Source: Trypanosoma brucei
Taxonomy: Eukaryota
Assembly (NCBI GenBank): GCA_000002445.1
Contig: CM000207.1
Coordinates: 736,001 to 800,000 of the forward strand
Reading direction: 5' to 3'
Length of the DNA: 64,000 nucleotides
The notes under the pieces were generated by a model. It was not told where the DNA came from. It was given only the letters and a program-made list of their open reading frames with translations, and searched no databases. Below are positions 1,318 to 25,180 of this stretch, piece after piece (positions within the stretch are counted from its first letter, which is position 1; each line of letters starts with the position of its first letter). A program made the translations under genes and the position numbers.

Positions 1318-1398
1318 TTGTTGTTTTTGTTGTTACTATTATTACTATTATTATTCAACAACAATAATAATAGTAATAATAGTAACAACAAAAACAAC
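1318..1398. repeat. Perfect AT-rich inverted repeat with arms of about 36 bp and a 7 nt spacer (caacaac); potential hairpin or cruciform
   Basis: Left arm ttgttgtttttgttgttactattattactattattatt. Its reverse complement aataataatagtaataatagtaacaacaaaaacaac is present immediately after the spacer. Coordinates approximate to a few bases. Confidence 0.8.
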
Positions 1399-1639
1399 GA
1401 AAACAGTATTGATGGATATAATAATATTGGGTCTAGATAATATGTGAGTGTGAAGAATGTAAGGGGGAGATTACGCGTATGTTTACATCAAAATAAAACA
1501 AAGTGACGGAAGCACAAAAGGACAAAAAATGAAGAAGAAGAAGAAGAAAAGAAATGAAAAAAAAAGAAAGAAAGGAGGAAAGAGGGAAGAGGAGGAGGGG
1601 AGACGTACCGGTATAAAAATATGAAAACAGACACGCGCG

Positions 1640-1760
1640 CACGCACATATATCTTTTATATATATGTCTTTTATATATTTATATATATATATACATATAT
1701 TCATATATACATATATTCATATATACATATATACATATATATATATATATTGTATATATT
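1640..1760. repeat. Imperfect (TA)n and TACATATA-type microsatellite block
   Basis: Direct read of tatatatacatatattcatatatacatatat and similar units. Confidence 0.8.
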
Positions 1761-2366
1761 TAAACGAATACATGTGTTTTTTTCTTATGTTATTTTATCT
1801 ATTTAGGTGCGGGTAAGTGTACATGTTTTTTTCTTCTTTATTGTTTATTGTTTATTTGCTTTATTATTATTATTATTATGTTGAAACGATAGGGGGAGGA
1901 GGAGGGATGAGAAGGTTACTTTTCTGTCATCCATTTTTTCTCTTTATCTTTTTTTTTCTTTTAGTTTGTTTTTACTTTTTGATCCCTCCGTCACTGCGGC
2001 ATGTCCGGATGTACTCCCATTTTTCTTTTTCTTTTTTCTTTTTTGTTTCGTTTTATCTTACTCATCCGCCTCCAACCGTGCATTTTTTTTTTCCGTTTCA
2101 CTTAGTTTTGTGTTCTCCAGTTCTTTTTTTTTCTTTTTTAATTCACTTCAATTTTATTATTTTGCTTCACTTGCCTACTTTTTTTTTTCTTTTTTTTTCG
2201 CTTGTTATGTTTCCGTCATTTTATCATTGCGCTGCCATTGCGTTTTCTTTTTTTCTTTTTTTTTTTCCACACCGTTTCTCCTTTTGTTTCTTTTCTTTTT
2301 AAAAAAAAAAAAATTAGAAAAAAAAATATTGCGTTCCCCTCACTCATTTTCCTATCCCTTTTAAAA

Positions 2367-2390
2367 CATACATACATACATACATACATG
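2367..2390. repeat. (CATA)6 microsatellite
   Basis: Direct read: catacatacatacatacatacat. Confidence 0.9.
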
Positions 2391-3640
2391 CGCACGTATA
2401 TGTATATGTAATAATACAAATATATGTGTGTACAACTTATGAGCATTATGGGAGGAAAGGAAGAGGAAGGGGAGTGAAAGGAGGATAGTAAAAAAAAAAA
2501 AAAAGAAAAATGAATAATTCAAGGAATAAAATAAAAAATAAAAAAATAAAGAAAAACGAATAGTGAAAACATGTTTAAATTATGATTGTTGTTATTATGT
2601 TTTTTTTTGATATTGATATTTTACACAGTGGAGTGTTGACTGAAAGGTTTCCAAACCTCCTATTTCCCTTATTTACTATCACATACATATCACATACGCG
2701 GGCTTTTCACTCTACCTCCCCTTTCCCTCCATTACGCAAGAAATAAATAAATTAAAAAGAAAAAAAGAAAAAAAAAAAGAAACGAAGAAAAAAAAACCGA
2801 AGAGTGATCGAAGGACAAAGTATAGTTTATTATTATTATTATTATCATTTTGTTTTCAAGTTTTTAATAGCAGAAAGAAACGAAAAAGGCAGAAAAGGAA
2901 AGGAGAATCACGAGTGAAATGATTGAGAAATGTTAACGGGTGGTGAGTGGTGTGCGCGTTTTGTCGTATTTGTGCATGTGAGTTGACTGGTGGAAAAAAA
3001 AAAGGAAAGATTTAAATAGGCCATTTGTTTTACGCAGAGGATGGGAAACTAAATAAAACCAGACGAACGGCTGAAGCCGTTTTTTTTTCTTTCATTTTCT
3101 TTCATTTTTTTTTTTTTGGTGAAGACGCAAACAGCAGCAGAACACGCAAGTATGAAATTGAAGGCGCCGCTCGCGTTAAGTGGGGTTTTCATGGAGGGCA
3201 AATTCGGTTGCTGCAAAGCATAGCCTTTTAGCAGCACGTTAAGCTCAGTGGAAAACTTACATGTGTGTTCGTGTTGGGGGCGTGTTTTTGTTTTTAAGTG
3301 GGAATGGTATTTTTGAAAACAAAAACAAAAACAAACGAACAAACAAACAAACTCAAATGAGTGCTCTTGTACACGCCGATCTGGCGGCTGTGCGCAAGGG
3401 GATACAAACGTAAAGAAAGAAGTTTATTATATTTTAAAGACAGGAAGAAAGTAAAAAGAAAAGAAAAACGCAGTAATTCCTCCATTGTAGTTTACGCAGG
3501 CGCGCCTCACCGCTCTTGTTTGTGCCATTTCCCCTTCTACAAAGAGACATGTACACATATGCCGCGTAACATAACTGCTGCATGAAGTGTGTGAAATGCC
3601 GTATATTTCCACTCTTTTCTTTCATTTTATTATCTGATTG

Positions 3641-3690
3641 TACCTCCTTTCCTTTCCCTTCCCCCTCCCTTTTGCTCTTTCTTTGTTAAT
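3641..3690 (+). promoter_or_regulatory. Polypyrimidine tract, candidate trans-splicing and polyadenylation signal, upstream of ACS1
   Basis: A C/T run (tacctcctttcctttcccttccccctcccttttgctctttctttgtt) on the coding strand about 240 nt before the ATG, with AG dinucleotides downstream. Kinetoplastid polyY tracts direct spliced-leader addition. Confidence 0.4.
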
Positions 3691-3925
3691 TCATTAATAG
3701 GTAAGTTGCCGAATATTATTTGAACTACATTTTATAGACTTGACTAAACTGTTCAACAACCAGGAACAATAACAAACGCCCAACGACAGGAGGGGTATCC
3801 CAACAATACAAGGGGGAGGGTAAGGGGGGGGGAAAAAAACTTACTGAGGAGATCGTTTCAACAAACCAGGTAAACGAGAAGTGACGATAATTAAATATTA
3901 ATAGTAGTGTGGCAGTTGTGTTTCG

Positions 3926-6022
3926 ATGGGAATGTACGTCACTAAGCTTCTCTCCCTCTGGAGTCACTGGTTTGAGGTGGATGACGAGGTGATCATTGCG
4001 AGACAAAAGTTTGGGCCACTTGCTCACATTTGTGGACCAGCGGAGGGCGAAAACTGTTCACCTGTTTACCGCTCCATAGGAGTCACAGATGAGGAGCAGG
4101 CGCGCATTACGAGGGAATGGTATTACGGCGAGCACTTTCTGAAACAGTTGGAGCAAACATGCACGAGCAGAAGAGATACTCTGGCAGTTGCTTACCGCAC
4201 AATTAACAAGGTTGAAAAGGAGTGGCGCGAGGACCATAATGGGAAGAGGCGCGAATGGCAGGTTACACATCTCAACGATCCGGTCTACATGACATATGGT
4301 GAATTATGGGAGAACTCTGTGGCCTTTGGAAAGGGTTTAAGGGAGTATGGAGCAAAGGAAGGGGACCGTGTTGCCATTTACGAGGATACGCGATGGGAGT
4401 GGCTTGCCTCTGCTATTGGGGTTTGGACGCAGTTGATGGTTACTGTAACAGTTTACGCTAACCTCTGCCGGGAGGGGCTGATGCACGCGCTCAAGGAGAC
4501 GGAGTGTGCCGCTATTATTTGCAACGGCCAAAACATAAAGGATCTCATTACCTTACTGAAGGAGGTCAATCTCACCAACACCACGTTGGTCTATCTCGAC
4601 TCTCTACCAGATGGGTTAAATGATGAAGGCATGCGCTTAATACCATGGAAACAGGTGCTGGAGACGGGAATGAAGAGTAACCTGGGCTATACCATTCCTG
4701 GAAATTGTGACACAACGGCTTTGATCATGTACACAAGTGGCACAGTGGCGGCACCCAAGGGTGTCATGCACACCTTTGGTTCTCTCACCGCCAGTAAAAA
4801 TGGGCTGGCGGACCGCTTCCTTGAGTGTATTGGACCCAAGGAGGAGGGTGAGACATATGTATCTTACCTCCCCCTTGCTCACATTTTGGAGTTTATTGCT
4901 GATGTGGTGATGCTTAGCCGCGGTACCTTGGTGTGTTTTGGTTCGCCACGAACACTCACGGATGATACGGCGCGACCACGAGGTGACTTGAAGGAGTTTA
5001 AGCCAGTGTTTATCGTTGGAGTCCCACGGATCTTTGAGACAATACGGAAGGTTGTGGAAAGTCGGCTACCACCTGTGGGTAGTTTTAAGAGGACCCTCTT
5101 TGATACTGCCTATGCTGACCGACTCCGTGCTCTCAAGGAGGGGAAAGATACGCCTTTCTGGAATGAAAAGGTTTTTAAGGTCCCACGCGACATGTTCGGT
5201 GGCAGGCTGCGTGGAGTGGTATGTGGTGGCGCACCTCTCGCTGACAGGACACAAGAGTTCATGCGGGTTGTCTTCGGCCTTCCGCTGGGACAAGGCTACG
5301 GATTGACAGAAACGTGCTGCAACGGAAGCATACAACGTTTGGGTGAGTTATATCCATCAGTTGGTCAACTCCTGAAAGGGGTTGAAGGGAGGCTATTGGA
5401 TACAGATGAGTACAAGCACACTGATAAGCCATTCCCGCGAGGGGAGCTCTGCCTTCGTGGGTCGTTTATGTTCAAGGGCTACTACAAGCAGGAGGCCATG
5501 AGCAAAGAAGTGTTGATTCCAGGGGGTTGGTTCCGCACGGGGGACGTTGTGGAAATTGGTGAAGATAATGCCCTGCGAGTCATTGGCCGTGTTAAGGCAC
5601 TGGTGAAGAACCTACTCGGAGAATACATTCAGCTGGAGTACCTGGAAGTGATTTACTCACAGCATCCATTGTCTGCCCCTAATGGCGTCTGCATTCTTGT
5701 AAATCAGCGGCGGGCATACATATGTGCCCTTGTAATCACCGACGAGGAAAGGGCTAAGAAGTTTGCCCAAGAAAATGGAATTGGTGGAACGTGGCCCGAG
5801 ATACTTAAGGACCCGACTTTCCACCAACGTGCCGCCAAGTCGTTGTCGAATTTCGGCGCTTCAATTGGTAGAAAACCCTTTGAACTGCTCCGTCAGGTAC
5901 GTGTGATCGCCGATGAGTGGACGGCAAAGAATGGGATGCTCACTGTCTCGATGAAAATCCGTCGCAACAAGGTGGAAGAAAGGTACGGCGATGTCATTGA
6001 ACAACTTTTCAAGTATGAGTAA
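3926..6022 (+). CDS. ACS1: Long-chain fatty acyl-CoA synthetase, first copy of the tandem ACS array (most divergent)
   Basis: 698 aa ORF carrying the AMP-binding superfamily motifs: P-loop-like MYTSGTVAAPKG, YGLTET, WFRTGD, GRVKALVKN, and a C-terminal VSMKIRR lysine motif. About 45-50 percent identical by eye to the three downstream copies. The symbol follows the known order of the T. brucei ACS1-4 array. Confidence 0.85.
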   Translation: MGMYVTKLLSLWSHWFEVDDEVIIARQKFGPLAHICGPAEGENCSPVYRSIGVTDEEQARITREWYYGEHFLKQLEQTCTSRRDTLAVAYRTINKVEKEWREDHNGKRREWQVTHLNDPVYMTYGELWENSVAFGKGLREYGAKEGDRVAIYEDTRWEWLASAIGVWTQLMVTVTVYANLCREGLMHALKETECAAIICNGQNIKDLITLLKEVNLTNTTLVYLDSLPDGLNDEGMRLIPWKQVLETGMKSNLGYTIPGNCDTTALIMYTSGTVAAPKGVMHTFGSLTASKNGLADRFLECIGPKEEGETYVSYLPLAHILEFIADVVMLSRGTLVCFGSPRTLTDDTARPRGDLKEFKPVFIVGVPRIFETIRKVVESRLPPVGSFKRTLFDTAYADRLRALKEGKDTPFWNEKVFKVPRDMFGGRLRGVVCGGAPLADRTQEFMRVVFGLPLGQGYGLTETCCNGSIQRLGELYPSVGQLLKGVEGRLLDTDEYKHTDKPFPRGELCLRGSFMFKGYYKQEAMSKEVLIPGGWFRTGDVVEIGEDNALRVIGRVKALVKNLLGEYIQLEYLEVIYSQHPLSAPNGVCILVNQRRAYICALVITDEERAKKFAQENGIGGTWPEILKDPTFHQRAAKSLSNFGASIGRKPFELLRQVRVIADEWTAKNGMLTVSMKIRRNKVEERYGDVIEQLFKYE

Positions 6023-7435
6023 CGCGTGCGGTCAGCGAGGGATGGTGTTGTGGACCACACGTTGGGTCTGTGCTGTGGGGTTATCGCTGGGTGAATCATT
6101 TGATGGTTGCTTTTTTTTTCTTCTTTTTTTTCCCTTTTTCGACACTTTTGTGTGTCTGGGCAGTTGGTGTTGTTATGTTCTTTTTCTTTCTTTTCTTGAC
6201 TTTGGTGCCCCTCCATCCCTTATGCCCCTTGTGTTTCGTCTCTTGGTTAAATTCCGACCCTGACAGTTGTTGTTATTATTATGGTTATCACTATTTTTTT
6301 CTTTGTTGGTGACGTTGGTGGCAGGAAATGTAACACATGAAGTGAATATACCCAACAGGTAGTAAAGAAAGTGGGAGTGAGGAGCGGGGGCAGTTTCGCC
6401 AACTGCGGTGTGCACGACTGAAAATAATGGAAGAGGAAAATACAGAAAGAGAAAGTGAAAGGGGGAAAAAAAGAGGAAAACAGAAGTGTCGCTCCACTGG
6501 TGAAGTGGAACCACGAGGAAACAATATTTCTTTTCCCCCTTCCTGTCTTCAAAAAGGAGTGCGGCGCATCGAGTAGGAAATGAACGATTCAGCCACCGTG
6601 GCACCAGATGTAAAACATTGGTTTAAACAGCCGGTAGGAGACGTTTGTAAACATAATGGACGAAACATATACCTACACTACACTGATGTTAATCGTAAAC
6701 ATGGTTTGGAGTGAAGGGGTGCGTTGCATGCGGGCACAAGTTTGACAGTTATTCCTCGCTTCTTACTTTTATTTGTGTTTTCCCGCGGAGGAACGTTTTG
6801 CCGCTCAGACGGATGTTTGCGCTACTACGCGTGCGTGGCTGCATCAGTAGCAGTTATGTGAATGCCATCGATTGATTGTGTGGATTCATCGGAGTGACCC
6901 TTATGTGTGTGTGTGTCACACACTATTATTTGTGTGTGCAGTACTTCTTTGAAGTGTTTCTTGTGCTCCTCGCCCTCTGGCTTCCTTACACCCCGCTGCT
7001 TCCCCCCTTTCCCTTTCCCCTTCAACTTTTTCTTAATTCCTCTCCCGATTTGATTCTTTTTCTTTAAATATAAACGAGGGTTTTCAGTGGGTCTTACAAA
7101 CTTACCTTTTTCTTATTCCCCCCATGTCATCAGCTGTGGCCATTCGAGAATTTCGCCGTTCCCCCACTTTGTTAACTTATCTGATGTTCAGTGCCTTTCC
7201 TTCCTCGGACTTTTTTTTTTTTACAAACATTTCCTTTACATTGCCTTTAATACACGCATGCACGTTGGTATAATATGCCAACGTTCCTTTTGGTGTATGC
7301 TGCGCAACTGAACCTAGCAGAGACAAATCCAGGTCCCTTACAGCACTGCAGAAGATTGGGCAGGATTCCTCATATATATTATATATCTTACAGTATATAC
7401 GTGTATTTATTTTACACACAACACTTTTTAAAAAG

Positions 7436-9562
7436 ATGAACACCGCTTCTGCGCTGAACGAAATCGAGGTGGCGGTCCTCCAGCTTATGGATGAGGCCAA
7501 CAGCCGAGAATCGGCACCAAACGAAGACATTGTGCAGCTTCGGAGCAAAGGCTCACAGAACGAGGCGATTCCACAGACAGAAACGGAGAATATGTCGGCC
7601 ATCTACCGTCGTGCCGGAGTCAGTGGCGAAGAGCACACACGACTCTGTCGAGAGTGGTACTACGGTGTGAACATGCCACAGAAGTTCATGGCAATATGCA
7701 AGAAAGGGGGAAGTCGCAGGGCTTTCGCGTACCGGGTTCTGTCAAACATATCGAAAGAAGTGCTAAGGGACCAAAATGGGCTTGAACGTTCATACGATAT
7801 AACATACTTTAAGGAAACGTGTTATATTAACTACCGTGTCCTCTGGGAAAATATCGAGTCGTTTGGGCGAGGTCTTGTGGAGTTGGGTATTTCACCAAAC
7901 TCCCGAGTCGCCATATACGAGGAGACGCGGTGGGAGTGGTTGGCAACAATTTACGGTATCTGGTCGCAGAATATGGTTGCCACCACAGTGTACGCCAATC
8001 TTGGGGAAGATGCGCTCGCGTATGCCCTCCGGGAAACAGGATCCCGTGCAATTATATGCAACGCAACAAATGTGCCAACACTGGTCCGGTTGGTGCAGAG
8101 CAACCGCATTCCGCCCTTGGTGATCATTTACATTGGTCAGCTACCTCCGGATACAAAAAGCACACATTGCCGCATCATCTCTTGGCTTCATGTCGTGGAC
8201 AATGGTCGCCTCTCAGATGAACCACTTCGAATCCCCACTGACAATGACCAAGTTGCTTTCATCATGTATACGAGTGGTACGACGGGGGACCCCAAAGGTG
8301 TCATTCACACACATGGCTCACTGATCTCGGGTGTTACTGCTTGTGCCGACTACGTGAATGAACTGATTGGTCCTTACGAAGAGGGTGAGTCGTACTGCGC
8401 TTACCTGCCTCTTGCCCACATATTTGAATTTGGTGTCGTCAACATCTTTCTTGCTCGCGGTTCTTTTGTTGGGTTTGGAAACCCCAGAACACTTCTCGAC
8501 ACGTACACTCGTCCACACGGTGATTACAGGGAGTACAAACCGGTTTTCACAATTGGCGTGCCGCGAGTGTACGACACGATAAAGAAAACGGTCGAGTCAC
8601 AGCTGGCACCCCGAGGGACACTACAGCGCCGTATATTCGAACACGCCTTCCAAACGAGACTTCGAGCCCTCAAGAAGGGTGAGGAGACCCCGTACTGGAA
8701 CAGGTTAATTTTTTCTCCATTTCGGTCCATGCTTGGAGGTAAGATGAAAACGATGCTTTCCGCCGGAGGGCCCCTCAGCGCACCAACGCAAACATTTCTT
8801 CATGTTGTATTTGGCATCATGCCACAAGGTTGGGGCCTCACGGAGACGGTGTGTGTTGGCACAAAGCAAGTCGCAGGTGATATGGAACCGGCCGCTGCAG
8901 GCAAGCAAGAGCGCACATGTGAAATGCGACTACTGGACGTGGAAGGATACAAGCACACCGATGAGCCCGATCCTCGTGGGGAAATTCTTCTGCGTGGTCC
9001 ATTCCTCTTCAAAGGGTACTACAAGCAGGAAGAACTAACCAAGGAGGTGCTTGATGAAGATGGTTGGTTTCATACGGGTGACGTTGGCAGCATCGGCCCC
9101 AATGGAACCCTTCGCATCATTGGCCGCGTGAAGGCCTTGGCAAAGAATGTTCTTGGAGAGTATGTTGCCATGGAAGCTTTGGAATCCATGTATGCACACA
9201 ACTCGCTGAGCATGCCCAACGGTGTTTGTGTCCTCGTGCATCCTGACAGACCGTACATTTGTGCGCTTGTTCTTACTGATGAAGCGAAGGTTGTTGCGTT
9301 CACGAGGGAGCATGGATTGAAAGGTAAATACCCTGAAGTTCTGCAGGACCCCGAGTTTCAGAAGAAGGCTACAGCATCATTTCAGGAGACGGCTCGTGCA
9401 TCTGATCGACAGAAGTTTGAGATTGTACGTCACGTACGCCTACTGAGTGATGAGTGGACTCCTGAAAATGGTGTGCTGACGGCCGCAGGCAAACTGAAGC
9501 GACGCGTCATCGATGAGAAGTACACTGATACTATTGTGTCACTTTTCGTGGAGGAGTGCTGA
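7436..9562 (+). CDS. ACS2: Long-chain fatty acyl-CoA synthetase, second copy; the N-terminal two thirds are unique, one internal patch and the C-terminal third are identical to copies 3 and 4
   Basis: 708 aa with MYTSGTTGDPKGVIHTHGSL, GWGLTET, WFHTGDVG, GRVKALAKNVLGEY and AAGKLKRRV. From LLDVEGYKHTDEPDPRGEILLRG to the stop codon the protein is identical or near-identical to copies 3 and 4. Confidence 0.85.
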   Translation: MNTASALNEIEVAVLQLMDEANSRESAPNEDIVQLRSKGSQNEAIPQTETENMSAIYRRAGVSGEEHTRLCREWYYGVNMPQKFMAICKKGGSRRAFAYRVLSNISKEVLRDQNGLERSYDITYFKETCYINYRVLWENIESFGRGLVELGISPNSRVAIYEETRWEWLATIYGIWSQNMVATTVYANLGEDALAYALRETGSRAIICNATNVPTLVRLVQSNRIPPLVIIYIGQLPPDTKSTHCRIISWLHVVDNGRLSDEPLRIPTDNDQVAFIMYTSGTTGDPKGVIHTHGSLISGVTACADYVNELIGPYEEGESYCAYLPLAHIFEFGVVNIFLARGSFVGFGNPRTLLDTYTRPHGDYREYKPVFTIGVPRVYDTIKKTVESQLAPRGTLQRRIFEHAFQTRLRALKKGEETPYWNRLIFSPFRSMLGGKMKTMLSAGGPLSAPTQTFLHVVFGIMPQGWGLTETVCVGTKQVAGDMEPAAAGKQERTCEMRLLDVEGYKHTDEPDPRGEILLRGPFLFKGYYKQEELTKEVLDEDGWFHTGDVGSIGPNGTLRIIGRVKALAKNVLGEYVAMEALESMYAHNSLSMPNGVCVLVHPDRPYICALVLTDEAKVVAFTREHGLKGKYPEVLQDPEFQKKATASFQETARASDRQKFEIVRHVRLLSDEWTPENGVLTAAGKLKRRVIDEKYTDTIVSLFVEEC

Positions 9563-10612
9563 TGAATGGTGCGGATCTCCATGGGGCGGTCTATTAATTG
9601 TGTTTGTGATGTTAATCAGTTCCTATTGTCCATCTGAATTGTCCTCTCTACACGTTCCATTATCTGTTTTCCGTCGGTCCAACTTCTTGATGCTGGTGGC
9701 GACAGCTTGCACGACAGGTTGTAAGCGTTAAGGCATGCAGGGTTGGTTTTGCAGCACGGGGGAGGGTATTGAAATACGTAATTTTTCCTAGTTGATACAT
9801 TTGATTACACTTGGTTTTGTTGTAGTGACTCTGTTTATTTACTTATTTTTCGCATAGGGGGATCCGATAGTGCAGACAACACGGTGTGCAAGTCGAGAAA
9901 CCCAAGTTACACCTGTATGCTCGTTTTCACGGGGTTGTGTATGCGTGAGTGCTATTTATTGGGTAACAGAGTCACCCTGCTGTTGCCTTTTTTCTTCCGC
10001 TTCGGGTGTTGGGGATTCTTCTTTTATCATTATTATTGTTATCCTCTTTTTTACTTGTTTTTAATTTTTGGCTTACGGTCAGGAGATTACTTACCCCCCT
10101 CCCCATCCAGTGGTTTTCCACATTGTCTAACTCACCGTAGGCCTTAGGCGCTTTGACATGATTTTCCATTCGCCCCTCCTGTGCACTTATGTCCGCGTCC
10201 CGTTACTTCTCACTCGTGCACTGTGCCTCGGTGCGATTCTTCCATTGTTTGTTTTTATTGACTACAAGTTTTTGTGGAAGGTTTCTTATAACATAAGCAA
10301 CTTAGGAATCACTGAGACGCATTGGCACACATTTCCCACCGCATCCCTCCCCTTGCTGTAGTCTTGTGTTGTTACGAGTGCCAGATGTTTGACCATCCAA
10401 TATGTACGACAATGACATCTGACCGCGGCACGTACGGGATCTGAAGGGGATTATCATGACAGCTGCAACCCGTAAATGTATGCTCGCTGATCCTGGTGCG
10501 CGTGTCTGTATGTGTGTAGGTTGCGCATCCTCAATAGTTACGAACCTTCATATTTCCCATTTCTTGTCATCTCGCGAGCACAAACCCTGGAGGCCACAGG
10601 TTAACCGCGTAC

Positions 10613-10698
10613 CTGTTATTGCTTTTTTCCTCTGTTTTCCTTCTGTTCTTCCCATCTTCGTCACGCCCCTCCTCATTTCTCTATCTTGCTTGCTACGA
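10613..10698 (+). promoter_or_regulatory. Polypyrimidine tract, candidate trans-splicing signal, upstream of ACS3; an identical copy at about 14112-14197 lies upstream of ACS4
   Basis: A long C/T run (gcttttttcctctgttttccttctgttcttcccatcttcgtcacgcccctcctcatttctctatcttgcttgc) on the coding strand about 250 nt before the ATG. Confidence 0.45.
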
Positions 10699-10941
10699 TA
10701 GCCATACCAAAAGACTGTAAAGCACAACCGCTCTGCAACAAGCACTAAGGGAAGAAAGACAGGTGATTGTGGATACGGTTGAACCTGAAGGGAAGGGAAG
10801 CAATCGGGACAGCAGTGGTGCGCGCCACGTGTGTTTGTGGGAGGAAGGCTTGTTAAGGTTGGCGAAATCATCTTAAAAGCCACCATTCACACCCAGTAAG
10901 TATTGTACTTCATAGGAAGCCTTTGCTTTTAAGATCCGATA

Positions 10942-13068
10942 TTGAGAAGTGGGGGCACCATGGGGGGATGTGTGATTTCCGTCATGGACTACATGAACAA
11001 TCGCTCTGAGGTTGAGAATGAGCATGTGAAAAAATTTCGTGCGCTTGGCAAGGTTGCTGTCCCTGTGCCCGGCAGCGAAACTTCTGATTGCTCTCCCATC
11101 TACCGTCTCGTAACTGACGACGGCAAAGATATTGAAGAGGTGCGGCGGGAGTGGTACGAGGGTGAGTGCCTTCCGCAGCGCTTCGCAGCCCTTTGCAAGC
11201 GTCAACCCAAGCAGCGTGCCCTTGCCTACCGCCCAGTGGATCGGGTAGAAAAGGCTGTAATTAAGGATCTGCACACGGGAACAGAGAAGACAGTGAACGT
11301 AACACATTTCAAGGAGACGAAATACCTTGACTACGGCACCTTCTGGGACTACATCGAGTCGTTTGGGCGAGGTCTCGTGGAGTTGGGTATTTCACCAAAC
11401 TCCCGAGTCGCCATATACGAGGAGACGCGGTGGGAGTGGTTGGCAACAATTTACGGTATCTGGTCGCAGAATATGGTTGCCACCACAGTGTACGCCAATC
11501 TTGGCGAAGATGCGCTCGCGTATGCCCTCCGGGAAACAGGCTGCAAGGGGATCATTTGCAATGCGAAGAATGTGAGTGTTGTTATTAAATTCATGAGTGA
11601 AGGCATCACACCTTCCGCACCCATCATCTACAATGGGAGCCTTCCTGCCTCTGTCGACCAGGAGGCCTGCCATCTCGTATCGTGGGAGGAAGTTGTGAAA
11701 CTTGGTCGTGAGGCCCGTGACCGGCTTCCGTTGAACAACTCTGGAAGGGCAGATGACCTTGCTCTCATCATGTATACGAGTGGTACGACGGGGGACCCCA
11801 AAGGTGTCATTCACACACATGGCTCACTGATGTCGGGAGTTCATGCACTTGACCACAGGCTGAACGAGGTAATGGGTTGCCATGTTAAAGGGGAAACATA
11901 CTGCGCTTACCTGCCTCTTGCCCACATTTTGGAGTTAGGAGTCGTTAACATCTTCATTGCCCGCGGTGCACTGATATGCTTTGGAAGCCCCTTTACACTG
12001 ACTGACCTCACTGCAAGGCCCCGTGGTGACCTAGCAGAGTACAATCCATCACTTTTAATTGGCGTACCGCGCATATACGATACGCTGAAGAAGGCAATTC
12101 AGGCGAAACTGCCGGCTCCTGGCACGTTCAAGCGTCGTGCTTTTGACCATGCCTTCCAGAGCCGCTTGCGTGCCTTTAAGGATGGCAAAGATTCGCCGTA
12201 CTGGGATGCGAAGGTGTTTGCAGCTACCCGTGCCGTTTTGGGGAAGGGAATACGAATTGCTTTGTCCGGCGGAGGCCCTCTGAGTACAGCCACACAAGAT
12301 TTTGTTAATGTGGTTCTGGCTCGCACGATTCAAGGTTGGGGCCTCACGGAGACGGTGTGTGTCGGAGGTGTTCAGTTTACAGGCGATATTGAAACCGGTG
12401 CTGTTGGACCCCCGCTGCTATCGGAGGAAGTGAAACTACTGGACGTGGAAGGATACAAACACACCGATGAGCCCGATCCTCGTGGGGAAATTCTTCTGCG
12501 TGGTCCATTCCTCTTCAAAGGGTACTACAAGCAGGAAGAACTAACCAAGGAGGTGCTTGATGAAGATGGTTGGTTTCATACGGGTGACGTTGGCAGCATC
12601 GACCCCAATGGAACCCTTCGCATCATTGGCCGCGTGAAGGCCTTGGCAAAGAATGTTCTTGGAGAGTATGTTGCCATGGAAGCTTTGGAATCCATGTATG
12701 CACACAACTCGCTGAGCATGCCCAACGGTGTTTGTGTCCTCGTGCATCCTGACAGACCGTACATTTGTGCGCTTGTTCTTACTGATGAAGCGAAGGTTGT
12801 TGCGTTCACGAGGGAGCATGGATTGAAAGGTAAATACCCTGAAGTTCTGCAGGACCCCGAGTTTCAGAAGAAGGCTACAGCATCATTTCAGGAGACGGCT
12901 CGTGCATCTGATCGACAGAAGTTTGAGATTGTACGTCACGTACGCCTACTGAGTGATGAGTGGACTCCTGAAAATGGTGCGCTGACGGCTGTGGGAAAAC
13001 TGAAGCGACGCGTCATCGATGAGAGGTACACTGATATCATAGCACCACTTTTCGTGGAGGAGTGCTGA
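10942..13068 (+). CDS. ACS3: Long-chain fatty acyl-CoA synthetase, third copy
   Basis: 708 aa with the same AMP-binding motifs. Over 95 percent identical to copy 4 by eye; the differences sit in a few short patches (for example GCHVKGETYCAYLPLAHILELGVVNIFIARG). Confidence 0.85.
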   Translation: MRSGGTMGGCVISVMDYMNNRSEVENEHVKKFRALGKVAVPVPGSETSDCSPIYRLVTDDGKDIEEVRREWYEGECLPQRFAALCKRQPKQRALAYRPVDRVEKAVIKDLHTGTEKTVNVTHFKETKYLDYGTFWDYIESFGRGLVELGISPNSRVAIYEETRWEWLATIYGIWSQNMVATTVYANLGEDALAYALRETGCKGIICNAKNVSVVIKFMSEGITPSAPIIYNGSLPASVDQEACHLVSWEEVVKLGREARDRLPLNNSGRADDLALIMYTSGTTGDPKGVIHTHGSLMSGVHALDHRLNEVMGCHVKGETYCAYLPLAHILELGVVNIFIARGALICFGSPFTLTDLTARPRGDLAEYNPSLLIGVPRIYDTLKKAIQAKLPAPGTFKRRAFDHAFQSRLRAFKDGKDSPYWDAKVFAATRAVLGKGIRIALSGGGPLSTATQDFVNVVLARTIQGWGLTETVCVGGVQFTGDIETGAVGPPLLSEEVKLLDVEGYKHTDEPDPRGEILLRGPFLFKGYYKQEELTKEVLDEDGWFHTGDVGSIDPNGTLRIIGRVKALAKNVLGEYVAMEALESMYAHNSLSMPNGVCVLVHPDRPYICALVLTDEAKVVAFTREHGLKGKYPEVLQDPEFQKKATASFQETARASDRQKFEIVRHVRLLSDEWTPENGALTAVGKLKRRVIDERYTDIIAPLFVEEC

Positions 13069-14440
13069 TGAATGGTGCGGATCTCCATGGGGCGGTCTAT
13101 TAATTGTGTTTGTGATGTTAATCAGTTCCTATTGTCCATCTGAATTGTCCTCTCTACACGTTCCATTATCTGTTTTCCGTCGGTCCAACTTCTTGATGCT
13201 GGTGGCGACAGCTTGCACGACAGGTTGTAAGCGTTAAGGCATGCAGGGTTGGTTTTGCAGCACGGGGGAGGGTATTGAAATACGTAATTTTTCCTAGTTG
13301 ATACATTTGATTACACTTGGTTTTGTTGTAGTGACTCTGTTTATTGCTTTGGCTGTGCTTGTTATATTGTGCAGACAACACGGTGTGCAAGTCGAGAAAC
13401 CCAAGTTACACCTGTATGCTCGTTTTCACGGGGTTGTGTATGCGTGAGTGCTATTTATTGGGTAACAGAGTCACCCTGCTGTTGCCTTTTTTCTTCCGCT
13501 TCGGGTGTTGGGGATTCTTCTTTTATCATTATTATTGTTATCCTCTTTTTTACTTGTTTTTAATTTTTGGCTTACGGTCAGGAGATTACTTACCCCCCTC
13601 CCCATCCAGTGGTTTTCCACATTGTCTAACTCACCGTAGGCCTTAGGCGCTTTGACATGATTTTCCATTCGCCCCTCCTGTGCACTTATGTCCGCGTCCC
13701 GTTACTTCTCACTCGTGCACTGTGCCTCGGTGCGATTCTTCCATTGTTTGTTTTTATTGACTACAAGTTTTTGTGGAAGGTTTCTTATAACATAAGCAAC
13801 TTAGGAATCACTGAGACGCATTGGCACACATTTCCCACCGCATCCCTCCCCTTGCTGTAGTCTTGTGTTGTTACGAGTGCCAGATGTTTGACCATCCAAT
13901 ATGTACGACAATGACATCTGACCGCGGCACGTACGGGATCTGAAGGGGATTATCATGACAGCTGCAACCCGTAAATGTATGCTCGCTGATCCTGGTGCGC
14001 GTGTCTGTATGTGTGTAGGTTGCGCATCCTCAATAGTTACGAACCTTCATATTTCCCATTTCTTGTCATCTCGCGAGCACAAACCCTGGAGGCCACAGGT
14101 TAACCGCGTACCTGTTATTGCTTTTTTCCTCTGTTTTCCTTCTGTTCTTCCTATCTTCGTCACGCCCCTCCTCATTTCTCTATCTTGCTTGCTACGATAG
14201 CCATACCAAAAGACTGTAAAGCACAACCGCTCTGCAACAAGCACTAAGGGAAGAAAGACAGGTGATTGTGGATACGGTTGAACCTGAAGGGAAGGGAAGC
14301 AATCGGGACAGCAGTGGTGCGCGCCACGTGTGTTTGTGGGAGGAAGGCTTGTTAAGGTTGGCGAAATCATCTTAAAAGCCACCATTCACACCCAGTAAGT
14401 ATTGTACTTCATAGGAAGCCTTTGCTTTTAAGATCCGATA

Positions 14441-16567
14441 TTGAGAAGTGGGGGCACCATGGGGGGATGTGTGATTTCCGTCATGGACTACATGAACAAT
14501 CGCTCTGAGGTTGAGAATGAGCATGTGAAAAAATTTCGTGCGCTTGGCAAGGTTGCTGTCCCTGTGCCCGGCAGCGAAACTTCTGATTGCTCTCCCATCT
14601 ACCGTCTCGTAACTGACGACGGCAAAGATATTGAAGAGGTGCGGCGGGAGTGGTACGAGGGTGAGTGCCTTCCGCAGCGCTTCGCAGCCCTTTGCAAGCG
14701 TCAACCCAAGCAGCGTGCCCTTGCCTACCGCCCAGTGGATCGGGTAGAAAAGGCTGTAATTAAGGATCTGCACACGGGAACAGAAAAGATGATGAACGTA
14801 ACACATTTCAAGGAGACGAAATACCTTGACTACGGCACCTTCTGGGACTACATCGAGTCGTTTGGGCGAGGTCTCGTGGAGTTGGGTATTTCACCAAGCT
14901 CCCGAGTCGCCATATACGAGGAGACGCGGTGGGAGTGGTTGGCAACAATTTACGGTATCTGGTCGCAGAATATGGTTGCCACCACAGTGTACGCCAATCT
15001 TGGGGAAGATGCGCTCGCGTATGCCCTCCGGGAAACAGGCTGCAAGGGGATCATTTGCAATGCGAAGAATGTGAGTGTTGTTATTAAATTCATGAGTGAA
15101 GGCATCACACCTTCCGCACCCATCATCTACAATGGGAGCCTTCCTGCCTCTGTCGACCAGGAGGCCTGCCATCTCGTATCGTGGGAGGAAGTTGTGAAAC
15201 TTGGTCGTGAGGCCCGTGACCGGCTTCCGTTGAACAACTCTGGAAGGGCAGATGACCTTGCTCTCATCATGTATACGAGTGGTACGACGGGGGACCCCAA
15301 AGGTGTCATTCACACACATGGCTCACTGATGTCGGGAGTTCATGCACTTGACCACAGGCTGAATGCTGTAATGGGACCGTTGCGGGATGGAGAAACTTAC
15401 CTGTCTTACCTGCCTCTTGCCCACATTTTGGAGTTAGGAGTGCTAAGCGTATTCATTGCCCGCGGTGCACTGATATGCTTTGGAAGCCCCTTTACACTGA
15501 CTGACCTCACTGCAAGGCCCCGTGGTGACCTAGCAGAGTACAATCCATCACTTTTAATTGGCGTACCGCGCATATACGATACGCTGAAGAAGGCAATTCA
15601 GGCGAAACTGCCGGCTCCTGGCACGTTCAAGCGTCGTGCTTTTGACCATGCCTTCCAGAGCCGCTTGCGTGCCTTTAAGGATGGCAAAGATTCGCCGTAC
15701 TGGGATGCGAAGGTGTTTGCAGCTACCCGTGCCGTTTTGGGGAAGAATATGTACATGGTTTTGTCCGGCGGAGGCCCTCTGAGTACAGCCACACAAGATT
15801 TCCTCAATGTTGCAGTCGTTCGTATAATTCAAGGTTGGGGCCTCACGGAGACGGTGTGTGTCGGAGGTGTTCAACTTACAGGCGATATTGAAACCGGTGC
15901 TGTTGGACCCCCGCTGCTATCGGAGGAAGTGAAACTACTGGACGTGGAAGGATACAAACACACCGATGAGCCCGATCCTCGTGGGGAAATTCTTCTGCGT
16001 GGTCCATTCCTCTTCAAAGGGTACTACAAGCAGGAAGAACTAACCAAGGAGGCAATAGATGAGGATGGTTGGTTTCATACGGGTGACGTTGGCAGCATCG
16101 GCCCCAATGGAACCCTTCGCATCATTGGCCGCGTGAAGGCCTTGGCAAAGAATGTTCTTGGAGAGTATGTTGCCATGGAGACGTTGGAATCCATGTATGC
16201 ACACAACTCGCTGAGCATGCCCAACGGTGTTTGTGTCCTCGTGCATCCTGACAGACCGTACATTTGTGCGCTTGTTCTTACTGATGAAGCGAAGGTTGTT
16301 GCGTTCACGAGGGAGCACGGATTGAAAGGTAAATACCCTGAAGTTCTGCAGGACCCCGAGTTTCAGAAGAAGGCTACAGCATCATTTCAGGAGACGGCTC
16401 GTGCATCTGATCGACAGAAGTTTGAGATTGTACGTCACGTACGCCTACTGAGTGATGAGTGGACTCCTGAAAATGGTGTGCTGACGGCCGCAGGCAAACT
16501 GAAGCGACGCGTCATCGATGAGAAGTACACTGATACTATTGTGTCACTTTTCGTGGAGGAGTGCTGA
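14441..16567 (+). CDS. ACS4: Long-chain fatty acyl-CoA synthetase, fourth copy
   Basis: 708 aa. Its N-terminus is identical to copy 3, with variant patches GPLRDGETYLSYLPLAHILELGVLSVFIARG and LGKNMYMVLSGGG. Its last ~30 residues are identical to copy 2 rather than copy 3. Confidence 0.85.
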   Translation: MRSGGTMGGCVISVMDYMNNRSEVENEHVKKFRALGKVAVPVPGSETSDCSPIYRLVTDDGKDIEEVRREWYEGECLPQRFAALCKRQPKQRALAYRPVDRVEKAVIKDLHTGTEKMMNVTHFKETKYLDYGTFWDYIESFGRGLVELGISPSSRVAIYEETRWEWLATIYGIWSQNMVATTVYANLGEDALAYALRETGCKGIICNAKNVSVVIKFMSEGITPSAPIIYNGSLPASVDQEACHLVSWEEVVKLGREARDRLPLNNSGRADDLALIMYTSGTTGDPKGVIHTHGSLMSGVHALDHRLNAVMGPLRDGETYLSYLPLAHILELGVLSVFIARGALICFGSPFTLTDLTARPRGDLAEYNPSLLIGVPRIYDTLKKAIQAKLPAPGTFKRRAFDHAFQSRLRAFKDGKDSPYWDAKVFAATRAVLGKNMYMVLSGGGPLSTATQDFLNVAVVRIIQGWGLTETVCVGGVQLTGDIETGAVGPPLLSEEVKLLDVEGYKHTDEPDPRGEILLRGPFLFKGYYKQEELTKEAIDEDGWFHTGDVGSIGPNGTLRIIGRVKALAKNVLGEYVAMETLESMYAHNSLSMPNGVCVLVHPDRPYICALVLTDEAKVVAFTREHGLKGKYPEVLQDPEFQKKATASFQETARASDRQKFEIVRHVRLLSDEWTPENGVLTAAGKLKRRVIDEKYTDTIVSLFVEEC

Positions 16568-16572
16568 TGAAT

Positions 16573-16573
<1 letters not shown>

Positions 16574-16634
<61 letters not shown>

Positions 16635-16640
16635 CGTGTG
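16574..16640. repeat. (GT)n microsatellite of about 28 perfect units plus an imperfect GC-interrupted tail, directly after the ACS4 stop codon
   Basis: Direct read: atggtgtgtgtg...gtgtgcgtgcgtgtg. The spurious ORF 16518..16748 translates it as repeated CVCV. Confidence 0.95.
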
Positions 16641-17841
16641 TTTATTTATTTTATCATTTATCTTTGGATTTCTTTGCCTTCTGGCTTTTTGTGGTTAACA
16701 TGTAAGTTTACTGCTCTAATATCTTACATTTTAAGTATACTTTCCTAGTCTGTTTTTTTTTTGTCCTGGCAGCATTCTTATTCGGTGCCCTTATGGTTGT
16801 TAAAGTTTGGGAAGAGGAATAGGCGAAAATCTTTTGTTCACCGTAGTCACTTTATATTCAGTTGAGGAAATCGTCGCATCACCACAAATTCTCATTTTTT
16901 GTTTAACCTTGATAACCCCACCTTGTTGTCGTGGTACGTTAAAACATGTGTTTTCAATGTTTTGTTCAGGGTCGTTGCCTTTGAGAGGTGAGCCTGTACA
17001 TTTGTTGCTTGTGGGCGAATGACTGATGCTGTTGTTTTCTATATATTGGCAAACAAACGGTTTCTTCTGCATGTGCTGTGCTCTTTTCTATTACTTCTAC
17101 TGTTTGGATGTGTGTGAAGGGTTGTTTCTTCTTTTCGTTGTTGTTTTTGTCTGTGGCGCAGTCGACAGGAGGGGCTTGGTGGAAGCCGTTTTGTTTTTTT
17201 GCCTGTGAACCCTCCGCCGTTTTGTTGGTAATTGTTTTCCTTTTTTTGTGGCGTGCAGTCTGCCCGTTATTATAATTGTGACCGAGGCTTTGTCTTAACG
17301 GGCTTGCAAGTATTAGTGGAGTTTCTATTTAATGCTTCCCCCCGTTTGTTCTGTGACGATGTTTTGCCACTGTTTGTAATTAATTTCATTAACGTGAGAT
17401 CGTCTGCCTTCTTTGTGTTTTCACTTGCATGCGGCAGTGTCCGTGCTTATGATTTTGAGGCGCGCAAGGTTGTGCATTTAATGTCATTCCTTTTTTTTTT
17501 TAAACGTCGCCACCTTTCCCCGTCCTGTAACGTGTTGTCTTTCTGCAGGGTGATTAGTTATAGCTGAGCAGACGACCCTGTTTCTCAGCTGTCAAGCATC
17601 AAGGCGGAAGGAGTAGAAGCCCTTTCATTGAACAGACACGCTGCGGTGGGAGATCATTCGTTCACTGCCATATTTTTTGCTCCTATAGATTTACCCCTTC
17701 GCTTGTCTTTGCGTGCTAACGCAAGCACAGCGCTGTTGGGGGTGGGGGAGCAAGTAGTGAGAGGACTGCGGAATAATACCAGAGAAGGCGCAACAGAGGA
17801 GCACCGGGCCCATCGAAAGGTGACAACCCCAAACGATAGGA

Positions 17842-18957
17842 ATGCTTTCGACGGTTTGTGGTTCCGGAGCTGCAACTATGAACAATGGCCGGCAGAAGAA
17901 AGTTGATCATTCACGAGGACTTGATTTCTATTTGCCACCTCCAGACGATCGCGAATACCGGCGGGGGAGAATACAGCGGCTACGCGACCAAATAACCGCA
18001 TGGAAGGATCCAAGTCGACCATTTTCTGTCTCCGGCCCCAATTCTATGTTGGGGACGAAGGAGTTCAAGTGGCTGTCAACCCAAAGGAGTTGCTCTTCCG
18101 GACGCACGGCGAACAGCTGCGGCGCAGCCGCCGGAGGTGCAACAGGGTCGAAGTGCGGGAAGGCAGCACCACAACAACCGGATAATGTGTATTTCCATGA
18201 CCACATTGTTTTCTGTGTGCCCTCAGGTAAGGGTCAAACCGAGTCACGTGGTGGGGCTGACGGAATGTGTTATGGTGTTACTACGAACAAGGAAAGCATG
18301 GCTGAGTGTGAACAAGGCCTTCAGCAGACCCATGTTGGACAGCGGTCGGTGTCCACGCGCAGCATTGGGGCGAACTCTGTTGGCATTTCAAGAGCCGATG
18401 GCGACAAGCAAGGGACAATGCGTTCTGATTATCGTTCATGTGCAACTTCTCCAACACCCGTGGCCACCCTTCAAAGCATCAAGGCACAAAGCGTCGATCT
18501 CGCCTCCTCTGTTCATGAGGCTCGGATGCAATGCAGACAGGGGGACTTCCCTACACCCCATAGTTCCCAACAACAACTATTCATGCGCACAATGGAACTT
18601 CCAATTGATTGGGGGGAGTACACACGTAACTCGAAGGGCACCACTTGTGCGTCGCGTGGTGATCAATCCGTTCCAAAGTTCGATACGATTCATTCGTGCG
18701 GGCCTGATGTGAGTTCCGTCTGTTTTGTGAACACTTTTACGGGAAGTAATGCATCTTCTCTCGGATTGGAAGGCCGAGCTACAGGAATAAAAGGGGAGAG
18801 CACTCTTAGATCTGCCGCAACACTGCATAACAACGCCCGCCGGCCGTTGCGCCTTTACTCCATTCAGTTGAAGGATTTTCATCCAAGCAGGACATCGACT
18901 ATCACCCCCGGCGCGGATGCACCGCGGAACGGCATACGCGTAAAACTGAAATCATAA
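17842..18957 (+). CDS. Hypothetical protein, 371 aa, Ser/Gly/Arg-rich, no recognisable domain
   Basis: Longest ORF in a region whose GC content is raised relative to the flanking spacers. It is on the same strand as the rest of the cluster. No motifs recognised. Confidence 0.4.
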   Translation: MLSTVCGSGAATMNNGRQKKVDHSRGLDFYLPPPDDREYRRGRIQRLRDQITAWKDPSRPFSVSGPNSMLGTKEFKWLSTQRSCSSGRTANSCGAAAGGATGSKCGKAAPQQPDNVYFHDHIVFCVPSGKGQTESRGGADGMCYGVTTNKESMAECEQGLQQTHVGQRSVSTRSIGANSVGISRADGDKQGTMRSDYRSCATSPTPVATLQSIKAQSVDLASSVHEARMQCRQGDFPTPHSSQQQLFMRTMELPIDWGEYTRNSKGTTCASRGDQSVPKFDTIHSCGPDVSSVCFVNTFTGSNASSLGLEGRATGIKGESTLRSAATLHNNARRPLRLYSIQLKDFHPSRTSTITPGADAPRNGIRVKLKS

Positions 18958-20753: not shown

Positions 20754-21201
20754 AGTAAGTGTGGCGTAATTTATGCCACTGTGAGTTACGTGAGGATAAT
20801 CTCCCCTTTGATTTGAAGGAGGATATAGGACCAATTGTGCGCTGCTGTAATACGTTCTCGACCTTGCTGAACACGTAATGGGGAGGGTGGGAAAGTATTA
20901 TAACAGTTTTTTCTTTGCTTTTTTGCTATCCCACGTACTTGTGAGCTGCACCAGTAGACTCTGAGTGGTGCTGATTGTTTTGGTGTTGCACACTCGCTAT
21001 TTGTCTTGCTTTCCACACGCACCTCTCTTCATGTGAAACAATCCTGACTTCTTTCCAATTTATTCTCTAACAAAGTGTTGTCGACTCGACAAGGTGTTGC
21101 TCTTGTCGCCGCGAGCTCGAAGGGGACACGGGTTGTAACGACGGGGAGGACCTCGTTGGCACGTGTGAGAGAGGCTTGTTTCTTCATTTCGTCGGCCGTT
21201 G

Positions 21202-21218
21202 CCCCCCCCCCCCCCCCC
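21202..21218 (+). repeat. Poly(C)17 homopolymer within the polypyrimidine region upstream of the 21331 gene
   Basis: Direct read: gccccccccccccccccccag. Confidence 0.9.

Positions 21219-25177: not shown

Positions 25178-25180
<3 letters not shown>

Follow-up and report, generated by a model that had tools for sequence, protein, structure and literature searches.

The 64,000-nucleotide stretch analysed here (the window) belongs to chromosome 9 of Trypanosoma brucei brucei TREU927 and carries the tandem array of the four acyl-CoA synthetase genes ACS1 to ACS4; these paralogues have very probably been shaped, as a whole, by recurrent, segment-restricted gene conversion together with unequal crossing-over. 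The same two blocks of coding sequence are homogenised between ACS2 and its ACS4-type neighbours in every Trypanosoma species examined. Inside these tracts the paralogues of one species are closer to each other than to their orthologues in other species, and the identity reaches synonymous sites and ends at discrete edges beside diverged sequence, as would be expected of conversion between loci; it is the species-specific synonymous identity, in combination with paralogues that are closer than orthologues in every lineage, which argues that conversion is recurrent and restricted to segments. An initial annotation made from the window alone had read the blocky boundaries as the mark of recurrent, patchy gene conversion and had proposed comparison with the arrays of other species; third codon positions, the flip of the tree between blocks, and variants shared within strains all agree with that reading, and the comparison indicates a process much older and more regular than the view of a single window showed.

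The four genes are open reading frames (ORFs) of 698–708 aa on the same strand (Tb927.9.4190-4230):

3926..6022, + strand: coding sequence (CDS) of ACS1 (Tb927.9.4190); an ORF whose product is exactly EAN76500 and matches PF00501 with E=1.4e-69; the divergent 5′ member of the array

7436..9562, + strand: CDS of ACS2 (Tb927.9.4200); a mosaic of ACS2-specific N-terminal and middle parts, orthologous across the genus, and of patches and a 3′ third common to ACS3/4

10960..13068, + strand: CDS of ACS3 (Tb927.9.4210), from the first ATG; the ORF is open from a TTG at 10942

14459..16567, + strand: CDS of ACS4 (Tb927.9.4230), from the first ATG; the ORF is listed from 14441

Their starts are spaced by 3510, 3524, and 3499 bp, in keeping with the four paralogues about 3.5 kb apart of the initial annotation, which had also stated, rightly, that such an array is known from T. 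brucei: by exact-sequence look-up the proteins match the deposited ACS1-4 exactly (EAN76500-76503, in the same order), with the clones AAF19437, AAF19439, and AAF19440 corresponding to ACS1, ACS3, and ACS4, and the ACS2 protein is also identical to one of T. b. gambiense DAL972. All four proteins match the Pfam AMP-binding family PF00501 (E=1e-69 to 6e-75, 235–253 bits against a cut-off of 29.9), the domain covering aa 125–529 of ACS2, and their nearest homologues in PDB are adenylate-forming enzymes. Core motifs are aligned in all copies, namely stretches which we take, from established knowledge of the ANL family, to be the P-loop (Y)TSGTTG.PKG, GWGLTE, the GWFHTGD hinge/FACS signature, and the motif of the C-terminal catalytic lysine. 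By domain and motifs the four proteins are assigned to the long-chain fatty acyl-CoA synthetases of the ANL superfamily. The existence of the ACS1-4 array is not new; four tandem ACS genes on chromosome 9, with ACS3 and ACS4 95% identical, are already published (Jiang et al. 2000, Exp Parasitol 96:16, as reported in PMC9719944), and the same source summarises the acyl-CoA synthetase activity and chain-length specificities of the recombinant ACS1-4 enzymes (Jiang & Englund 2001, Biochem J 358:757).

Nucleotide identity between the CDSs is 96.3% for ACS3 and ACS4, the pair that had been called near-identical, 72.3% for ACS2 against either of them, and about 53% for ACS1 against the rest. When ACS2 is compared with ACS3/4 in 90-nt windows, identity is 40–60% in most of them and 99–100% in a few. 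Tracts were called from a site-pattern map and with a two-state hidden Markov model (HMM), and the coordinates of patch 1 and of the 3′ blocks were taken from BLAST:

7842..8040, + strand: patch 1 (ACS2 codons ~140-202), equal to 11342-11540 in ACS3 and 14841-15039 in ACS4; found by BLAST and by cross-BLAST with DAL972

8259..8325, + strand: tract on the P-loop/AMP-binding motif (IMYTSGTTGDPKGVIHTHGSL), codons 275-297, 67 nt exact; equal to 11765-11831 and 15264-15330

8825..8856, + strand: tract on the GWGLTETV motif, codons 464-474, 32 nt exact; equal to 12331-12362 and 15830-15861

8929..9571, + strand: homogenised 3′ block of ACS2, from codon ~498 through the stop and a further 9 nt; first, partial copy of the boundary of a 3.5-kb unit

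12435..13077, + strand: homogenised 3′ block of ACS3, by BLAST and HMM

15934..16576, + strand: homogenised 3′ block of ACS4; identity with ACS2/3 ends 9 nt past the stop

Within the 199-nt BLAST tract of patch 1, the HMM tract is 188 nt long with 2 mismatches, and ACS2 shares exact runs of 128+35 nt with ACS3 and one of 141 nt with ACS4; the peptide that the initial annotation quoted from this patch is exact in ACS2 and ACS3 and carries one substitution (N to S) in ACS4. The 3′ block of 643 bp is 98.4–98.8% identical between ACS2 and ACS3/ACS4, its coding part of 631 nt containing 8–10 mismatches. Of the earlier description of an ACS2 gene unique at its 5′ end and switching to full identity at an internal patch and over the 3′ third, the ACS2-specific N-terminal part and the sharp blocks stand, and the word “full” was slightly too strong, given the substitution in ACS4. 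The tracts of 67 and 32 nt are absent from that description. For the former, which could be a conversion tract of short length or else a motif conserved to an extreme degree, the paralogues have a third-position identity of 1.00 in T. brucei, of 0.95 in T. vivax, and of only 0.60–0.75 in other species; a short tract comparable to the one on GWGLTETV was called in all species.

A breakpoint-type analysis, which the initial annotation had suggested as a check, was carried out as a GENECONV-style permutation test, with 10,000 permutations of 1176 polymorphic sites. The blocks exceed chance: ACS2 and ACS3 had a longest concordant run of 174 (permutation maximum 23, p≤1e-4), ACS2 and ACS4 one of 119 (permutation maximum 22); ACS1 shared no significant concordant tract with any of ACS2-4 in this test. 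As had also been noticed, the end of ACS2 follows ACS4 and not ACS3: over the last ~23 codons it equals ACS4 at all 12 sites where ACS3 differs.

A protein search found orthologues of the ACS2 type as well as of the ACS3/4 type throughout Trypanosoma, and the arrays of T. cruzi Dm28c, T. vivax, T. melophagium, T. conorhini, and T. theileri were compared with that of T. brucei at the nucleotide level. T. cruzi, T. melophagium, and T. conorhini have ACS1, ACS-X, ACS2, and ACS4, where ACS-X is our name for a fourth paralogue type of 698–699 aa; it lies directly upstream of ACS2, in these three species between ACS1 and ACS2. The locus of T. theileri holds ACS-X, ACS2, and ACS4, with a cut-off, untyped 699-aa ORF upstream. 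T. brucei has two ACS4-type genes, and a tblastn search of the window found no remnant of ACS-X between its ACS1 and ACS2 (6023-7435); the four-gene arrays of T. brucei (1, 2, 3, 4) and T. cruzi (1, X, 2, 4) are, therefore, not one-to-one orthologous. In T. vivax (retrieved locus 10001-22166) at least three copies of the ACS4 type come after ACS2, starting at 13709, 17399, and 21089, with a period of 3.69 kb and the first two copies 100% identical; neither ACS1 nor ACS-X lies within 10 kb upstream, and the ACS2 and ACS4-type genes share a C-terminal extension of 13 residues. In T. conorhini a fifth, divergent ACS-like gene of ~40% identity to the others is found downstream of ACS4 (15357-18261 of the retrieved locus); being split into ORFs of 439 and 450 aa, it may be a pseudogene or contain a sequencing frameshift.

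In all six species compared at the nucleotide level, ACS2 and its ACS4-type neighbour have a third-position identity of ~1.0 over codons ~139-198 and ~495-700 and of 0.2–0.5 elsewhere; between orthologues of different species it is 0.3–0.85 in the homogenised blocks. The proteins of T. congolense fit the same picture, ACS2 and ACS4 being 95% and 99% identical in the two blocks and 26–52% in the N-terminal and middle ones, and T. brucei–T. congolense orthologues being 86% identical in the homogenised blocks. Neighbour-joining trees with 200 bootstraps change their topology accordingly between blocks. From the N-terminal and middle codons, the ACS2 orthologues are monophyletic with 100% and the ACS4-type genes with 99% bootstrap; from codons 500-700, ACS2 and ACS4 of one species form a clade with 100% in six of six species, and from codons 140-198 such a clade reaches 100% in four species. 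The paralogues also have species-specific substitutions in common, as in LLDVEGYKHTDEPDP of T. brucei, which corresponds to ...DQPEP in T. congolense, ...DTPEP in T. vivax and T. cruzi, and ...DKPEP in T. melophagium.

Every species has the 5′ edge of its C-terminal block (C block) at codons 496-505, where the ACS-X tracts start too, running on to codon 553-616. T. cruzi presents a three-way patchwork, in which ACS-X equals ACS4 over codons ~500-616 although ACS2, lying between the two, differs at codons 553-559; from codon ~616 onward it is ACS2 that equals ACS4 and ACS-X that diverges, and ACS4 has a patch of its own at codons ~657-671. Within the blocks, T. vivax has 0 mismatches in 678 nt and T. 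conorhini, at the other extreme, ~4% divergence, and sub-tracts differ in age. The tract of the stercorarian species does not extend to the stop codon. The C-terminus of the salivarian ACS3/4 proteins, LFVEEC, is of the ACS2 type, those of ACS4 in T. cruzi and T. melophagium ending in LF(A/Q)DP, and patch 1 is closer to the MGGC-type paralogue of Leptomonas (73–76%) than to the ACS2-type one (58–64%); C-termini and the likeness of patch 1 provide indirect, partial evidence for the direction of transfer. At the protein level the two-block mosaic was not seen in Leishmaniinae and Phytomonas. Pairs of array paralogues in Phytomonas EM1 and Novymonas are 98–100% identical over aa ~520-600 and 30–70% elsewhere, and this region may be a conversion hotspot beyond Trypanosoma.

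The array of T. brucei also bears the signature of a duplicated unit, which comprises spacer as well as coding sequence:

9563..10959, + strand: ACS2-ACS3 spacer (3′ untranslated region (UTR), intergenic region, 5′ UTR), a duplicate of the ACS3-ACS4 spacer

13069..14458, + strand: ACS3-ACS4 spacer, a duplicate of the ACS2-ACS3 spacer

16574..16641, + strand: (GT)34 microsatellite (TGAATGGTG), called by TRF, directly after the last base common to the 3′ ends of ACS2/3/4

The two spacers are 98.8% identical save for a single-nucleotide polymorphism (SNP) and one replaced patch of 30 nt (9839-9869 versus 13344-13368), which has 22 differences including a 7-nt indel; both versions of this patch are also present in DAL972, and T. 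equiperdum carries the one of the ACS2-ACS3 spacer. The ACS1-ACS2 spacer and the sequence after ACS4 are unrelated to the duplicated spacers. The initial annotation had regarded the downstream spacer as common to copies 2, 3, and 4 and as part of the converted sequence; it is common to ACS2 and ACS3 but not to ACS4, which diverges 9 nt after the stop, and the likeness of the spacers is better explained as the signature of a duplication unit generated by unequal crossing-over than as a conversion tract. In a self-BLAST, 8244-13077 aligns with 11753-16576, and the tandem units of 3.5 kb extend over 8929-12434 and 12435-15933, with a partial third at 15934-16576; the unit begins inside the ACS2 3′ block and the repeated region ends 9 nt past the ACS4 stop. 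The units are in register including the spacer, their boundaries lie within a homology tract, and the outer flanks are unrelated, as is expected of unequal crossing-over. The array of T. vivax is built alike, its unit measuring 3.69 kb. Compared with TREU927, DAL972 has a shorter (GT)n run at the 3′ junction and T. equiperdum a much shorter one; at the corresponding position of the other species there is none.

According to the mechanism proposed here, ACS2 and the ACS4-type gene or genes downstream of it, plus ACS-X where present, would repeatedly overwrite one another, and this overwriting would be limited to two main segments, of which one spans ACS2 codons ~140-200 and the other reaches from codon ~498 to the end; the N-terminal ~135 and the middle ~300 codons would stay paralogue-specific and evolve as ordinary orthologues. 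Conversion would have been going on independently in each lineage since before the salivarian/stercorarian split. The C block consists of the end of the PF00501 AMP-binding domain and all that is C-terminal to it, which in enzymes of the ANL superfamily includes the hinge and the mobile C-terminal (lid) domain. Stability of the boundaries may stem from a need of recombination for long and nearly mismatch-free homology, such that heteroduplex could not enter the diverged, specificity-bearing segments; conversions that spread further would also erase paralogue-specific function and might be removed by selection. Homologous recombination in T. brucei shows a strict dependence on the length of the substrate and is hindered by mismatches, and mismatch repair is of the short-patch kind (PMC1904282); by these rules, segments that are alike would keep recombining and those beyond the divergence threshold would escape permanently. 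The loop just upstream of the C-block edge reads (K/Q)QER.CE(M/L) in ACS2 and Q.EP..E in the ACS4 type, kept within and differing between the two lineages of paralogues, which fits a barrier held by selection on paralogue-specific function.

ACS3 would have arisen in the T. brucei lineage, when ACS2 and an ancestral ACS4-type gene crossed over inside their homogenised 3′ block and a unit of 3.5 kb, made up of the 3′ block, the spacer, and the 5′ two-thirds of the ACS4-type gene, became duplicated. The new gene would have received its 5′ two-thirds from the ACS4 type and its 3′ end and downstream spacer from ACS2; this event would explain the downstream spacer common to ACS2 and ACS3, the unrelated sequence after ACS4, and a tail of ACS3 that resembles ACS2 of T. 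congolense. Later, short conversions would have copied the ACS4 tail onto ACS2 and kept ACS3 and ACS4 and both spacers near-identical, sparing a few islands. The segments of ACS3 that stand apart are the following:

12980..13045, + strand: ACS3-specific tail patch with 12 substitutions against ACS2, which here equals ACS4; encodes GALTAV...ERY...IIAP

11865..11952, + strand: island 1, corresponding to 15364-15451 in ACS4; holds 27 of the 78 ACS3/ACS4 differences

12247..12327, + strand: island 2 of ACS3/ACS4 divergence, corresponding to 15746-15826 in ACS4

The tail variant of ACS3 (GALTAV...ERY) is that of T. congolense ACS2, and the tails of ACS2 and ACS4 (GVLTAAG) have the variant of T. congolense ACS4. 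The ACS3 tail is, by this match, likely a relic of the ancestral ACS2 tail, kept in ACS3 and later overwritten from ACS4 in ACS2 itself; in DAL972 it is partly converted (GV...AV). ACS3 and ACS4 differ at 78 nt and 34 residues, which are clustered in few islands; local nucleotide divergence there is ~40%, and the islands are kept between TREU927 and DAL972. They may be old differences shielded from homogenisation by selection, a reading taken up because the literature ascribes distinct specificities to ACS3 and ACS4, or they may be imports from an unlinked paralogue. At the protein level only, the product of the unlinked ACS5 gene, Tb927.10.3260 on chromosome 10, resembles the ACS4 island, having the residues RD..ETY.SY and VLS in common with it, which hints at either ectopic conversion or convergent selection.

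Comparison of strains bears on how recent the exchange is. Over 19.6 kb, chromosome 9 of T. b. gambiense DAL972 and the window are 98.3% identical, and the four genes, the tracts, and the diagnostic patches of ACS3/ACS4 all recur in DAL972. Private SNPs or indels of TREU927 or DAL972 that are common to the paralogues within the strain are found in both spacers (~14 sites and indels) and in the 3′ blocks, which is consistent with exchange having continued after the brucei/gambiense split. T. equiperdum IVM-t1 (GCA_003543875.1; retrieved locus 6484-15627) has only three ACS genes, namely ACS1, ACS2, and one ACS4-like gene, which is preceded by a spacer of the ACS2-ACS3 type and has the same tracts with ACS2, the 3′ blocks of the two differing at 1 of 631 nt. 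A reverse unequal crossover in the identical spacer/5′ region would yield such an array, which is either a unit deletion of this kind or an assembly collapse. Copy number, taken from assemblies, is four in TREU927 and DAL972, three in T. equiperdum IVM-t1, and at least three for the ACS4 type of T. vivax. Three T. cruzi assemblies are nearly identical and uninformative on turnover at the strain level.

Were the identical blocks simply the most constrained parts of the enzyme, kept alike by purifying selection, conversion would not be needed at all. Conserved ANL motifs do occur in the blocks, the tracts of 67 and 32 nt coincide exactly with universal ones, and ACS1 and ACS-X are also closer to ACS2/4 inside the blocks (51–69% in patch 1, 52–77% in the C block) than outside (~30–55%). 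However, third positions are 95–100% identical within a species as compared with 30–65% between the orthologues of T. brucei and T. vivax or T. cruzi over the same blocks, the block trees group by species with 100% bootstrap, and the amino-acid substitutions that paralogues share are species-specific, none of which could be brought about by selection acting on the protein; third positions and block trees together lead us to reject purifying selection alone, which is scarcely credible. An assembly artefact, that is, paralogue reads merged into false identical tracts or a wrong copy number, had been named in the initial annotation as something that would overturn its reading, and tandem repeats of 3.5 kb are indeed hard to assemble; the gene count varies (four in TREU927 and DAL972, three in T. 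equiperdum) and the T. vivax copies are 100% identical. Yet the mosaic recurs with the same boundaries in three assemblies of the T. brucei group and in five other species, all separate records, the ACS3/ACS4 diagnostic patches recur in DAL972, and a collapse would lose copies, not make sharp mosaics amid divergent flanks. With the mosaic found again in eight further assembly records, among them the independent ones of DAL972 and T. equiperdum, it is not an artefact of this record, and the explanation was discarded as extremely improbable.

The positions of the boundaries, identical everywhere, look as if inherited from one event, and unequal-crossover duplication alone accounts for the equality of ACS2 and ACS3 in the 3′ third and spacer; it is nevertheless very unlikely that a single ancient domain exchange, followed by one recent duplication in T. 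brucei, produced the array. Such a history predicts that within the blocks the paralogues of a species be at least as diverged as orthologues between species, and the opposite holds in every species; nor does it agree with the spread of divergence within the blocks from 0/678 nt to ~4%, with sub-tracts of different age, with three-way patchworks, or with variants common to paralogues at the level of strains as well. Somewhat less improbable, though still poorly supported by the data, is that the boundaries are set by a sequence-specific recombination signal, be it a hotspot or a break or termination site such as (GT)n: the 3′ limit in T. brucei abuts (GT)34, and the 5′ edge of the C block stays within ~10 codons in all species. 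Other species lack (GT)n there, though, and stercorarian tracts stop before the stop codon; the paralogue-specific loop lying just upstream of the 5′ edge agrees with a barrier made by selection or homology, and no common nucleotide motif is evident at the tract edges.

Several observations weigh against recurrent segmental conversion, or against its details as laid out above. The within-species clade for patch 1 is weak in T. melophagium (45%) and T. theileri (35% bootstrap), and T. congolense was compared at the protein level only. A donor for the islands is absent within the array, as neither ACS1 nor ACS2 matches them, which leaves part of the mosaic unexplained. TREU927 and DAL972 are each represented by a haploid consensus of a diploid, so some of the “strain-specific shared SNPs” could be allelic, and the three-gene array of T. 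equiperdum could reflect a collapsed assembly. A consistent signature of GC-biased conversion is not seen across species in GC content at third positions, which is higher in homogenised than in other blocks in T. vivax (0.74 versus 0.51) and T. cruzi (0.65 versus 0.56), does not differ between them in T. brucei, and is lower in T. melophagium. Finally, conversion is inferred throughout from comparison of sequences, and homology threshold and selection are both candidate causes of the fixed boundaries.

A more far-reaching idea starts from recurrent conversion and takes its fixed domains to be a selected architecture, in which ACS-X, ACS2, and ACS4 would share one catalytic/C-terminal “engine” module; we consider this unlikely, if worth stating. 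On this reading a shared partner, mixed oligomers, or one co-evolving factor would, for example, be the cause, and only the N-terminal targeting and middle substrate-tunnel parts would be free to diverge. The islands between ACS3 and ACS4 would be selected specificity determinants, perhaps imported from ACS5. If the architecture were indeed selected, conversion would be a genus-wide, roughly 100-million-year-old mechanism of modular enzyme evolution.

Other features of the genes and the window may be mentioned. ACS3/4, ACS-X, and most ACS1 orthologues start with MGGC or MGxx, which resembles a dual-acylation (N-myristoylation/palmitoylation) signal; the ACS2 lineage starts with MNT... in every Trypanosoma species and with MD... 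in Leishmaniinae, and T. brucei ACS1 with MGMY. Differing N-termini suggest that paralogue-specific membrane targeting may be encoded in the non-converted N-terminus. The window's 21 ORFs of at least 200 aa all lie on the + strand, which would be expected of a single polycistronic unit, and no Rfam match was found in the window. Two ORFs of 250 aa on either side of the array (166-918 and 20001-20753) were considered and turned out to be unrelated. AT-rich stretches (GC 0.32–0.40) lie at 1-4000 and 24000-28000; the first contains a near-perfect palindrome of 87 bp (1316-1402), a (TA)52 run (1657-1759), and A-rich repeats.

The array is a biochemically characterised locus of fatty-acid activation in a pathogen of humans and livestock, and the segmental pattern has practical consequences. 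As the homogenised parts are interchangeable, the published differences in specificity between ACS2 and ACS3/4 must map to the N-terminal and middle segments; for ACS3 versus ACS4, the pattern points to the two islands of ~80 nt and can guide the design of chimeras and inhibitors. Probes, RNA interference fragments, CRISPR guides, and short reads placed on the 3′ third or on patch 1 cannot tell the genes apart, and ACS2 and ACS3 also have a common 3′ UTR. Further, the array is a clean natural case of conversion boundaries fixed throughout a genus and lends itself to the question of what delimits conversion, homology thresholds or selection; it also corrects a published classification of these genes as not evolving in concert. 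In that study (Jackson 2007, BMC Evol Biol 7:54, PMC1855330) the array, “Tb82” (“fatty acyl CoA syntetase”), was classed as retaining orthology, whole-gene trees having rejected both the “orthologous” and the “concerted” topologies, and partial or regional conversion was documented in other arrays, e.g., Tb17. The block-wise split made here, in contrast, assigns ~40% of the coding sequence to evolution in concert and the rest to orthology, and a mixture of this kind explains why both whole-gene topologies were rejected for Tb82. Locus, proteins, gene order, and ACS3/ACS4 identity are the same as in the published ACS1-4 array; the accessible part of the literature on it covers order, identity, and specificities without describing the segmental conversion pattern or its conservation across species. 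Nothing else of relevance came up in full-text searches for concerted evolution or gene conversion together with ACS in trypanosomes; the primary papers of 2000/2001 may mention the T. brucei mosaic.

The process itself is of a known kind and the locus was already known; what appears to be new, judging from the comparisons made here, is that conversion domains are positionally conserved across a genus and involve three paralogue types, contrary to the whole-gene classification. Bounded interlocus conversion in tandem duplicates is familiar from the human fetal gamma-globin genes, where a (TG)n run forms the boundary, and from the red/green opsin genes. As in these systems, neighbouring ACS genes are identical over part of their length, the edges are sharp, a simple-sequence run lies at one edge, and functional segments escape; unlike them, the ACS boundaries are common to many species, the timescale is deeper, and three paralogue types (X, 2, and 4) take part. 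Within T. brucei, segmental (mosaic) gene conversion is known from the variant surface glycoprotein (VSG) genes (PMC3708902, PMC13233330). There, too, short, patchy, homology-guided, and non-reciprocal transfer creates mosaic genes, in the same organism and presumably by the same machinery; a link of ACS conversion to antigenic variation is not expected. VSG mosaics diversify antigens and are selected for novelty, whereas conversion in the ACS genes homogenises fixed modules of housekeeping enzymes, in a core chromosomal array and throughout the genus.

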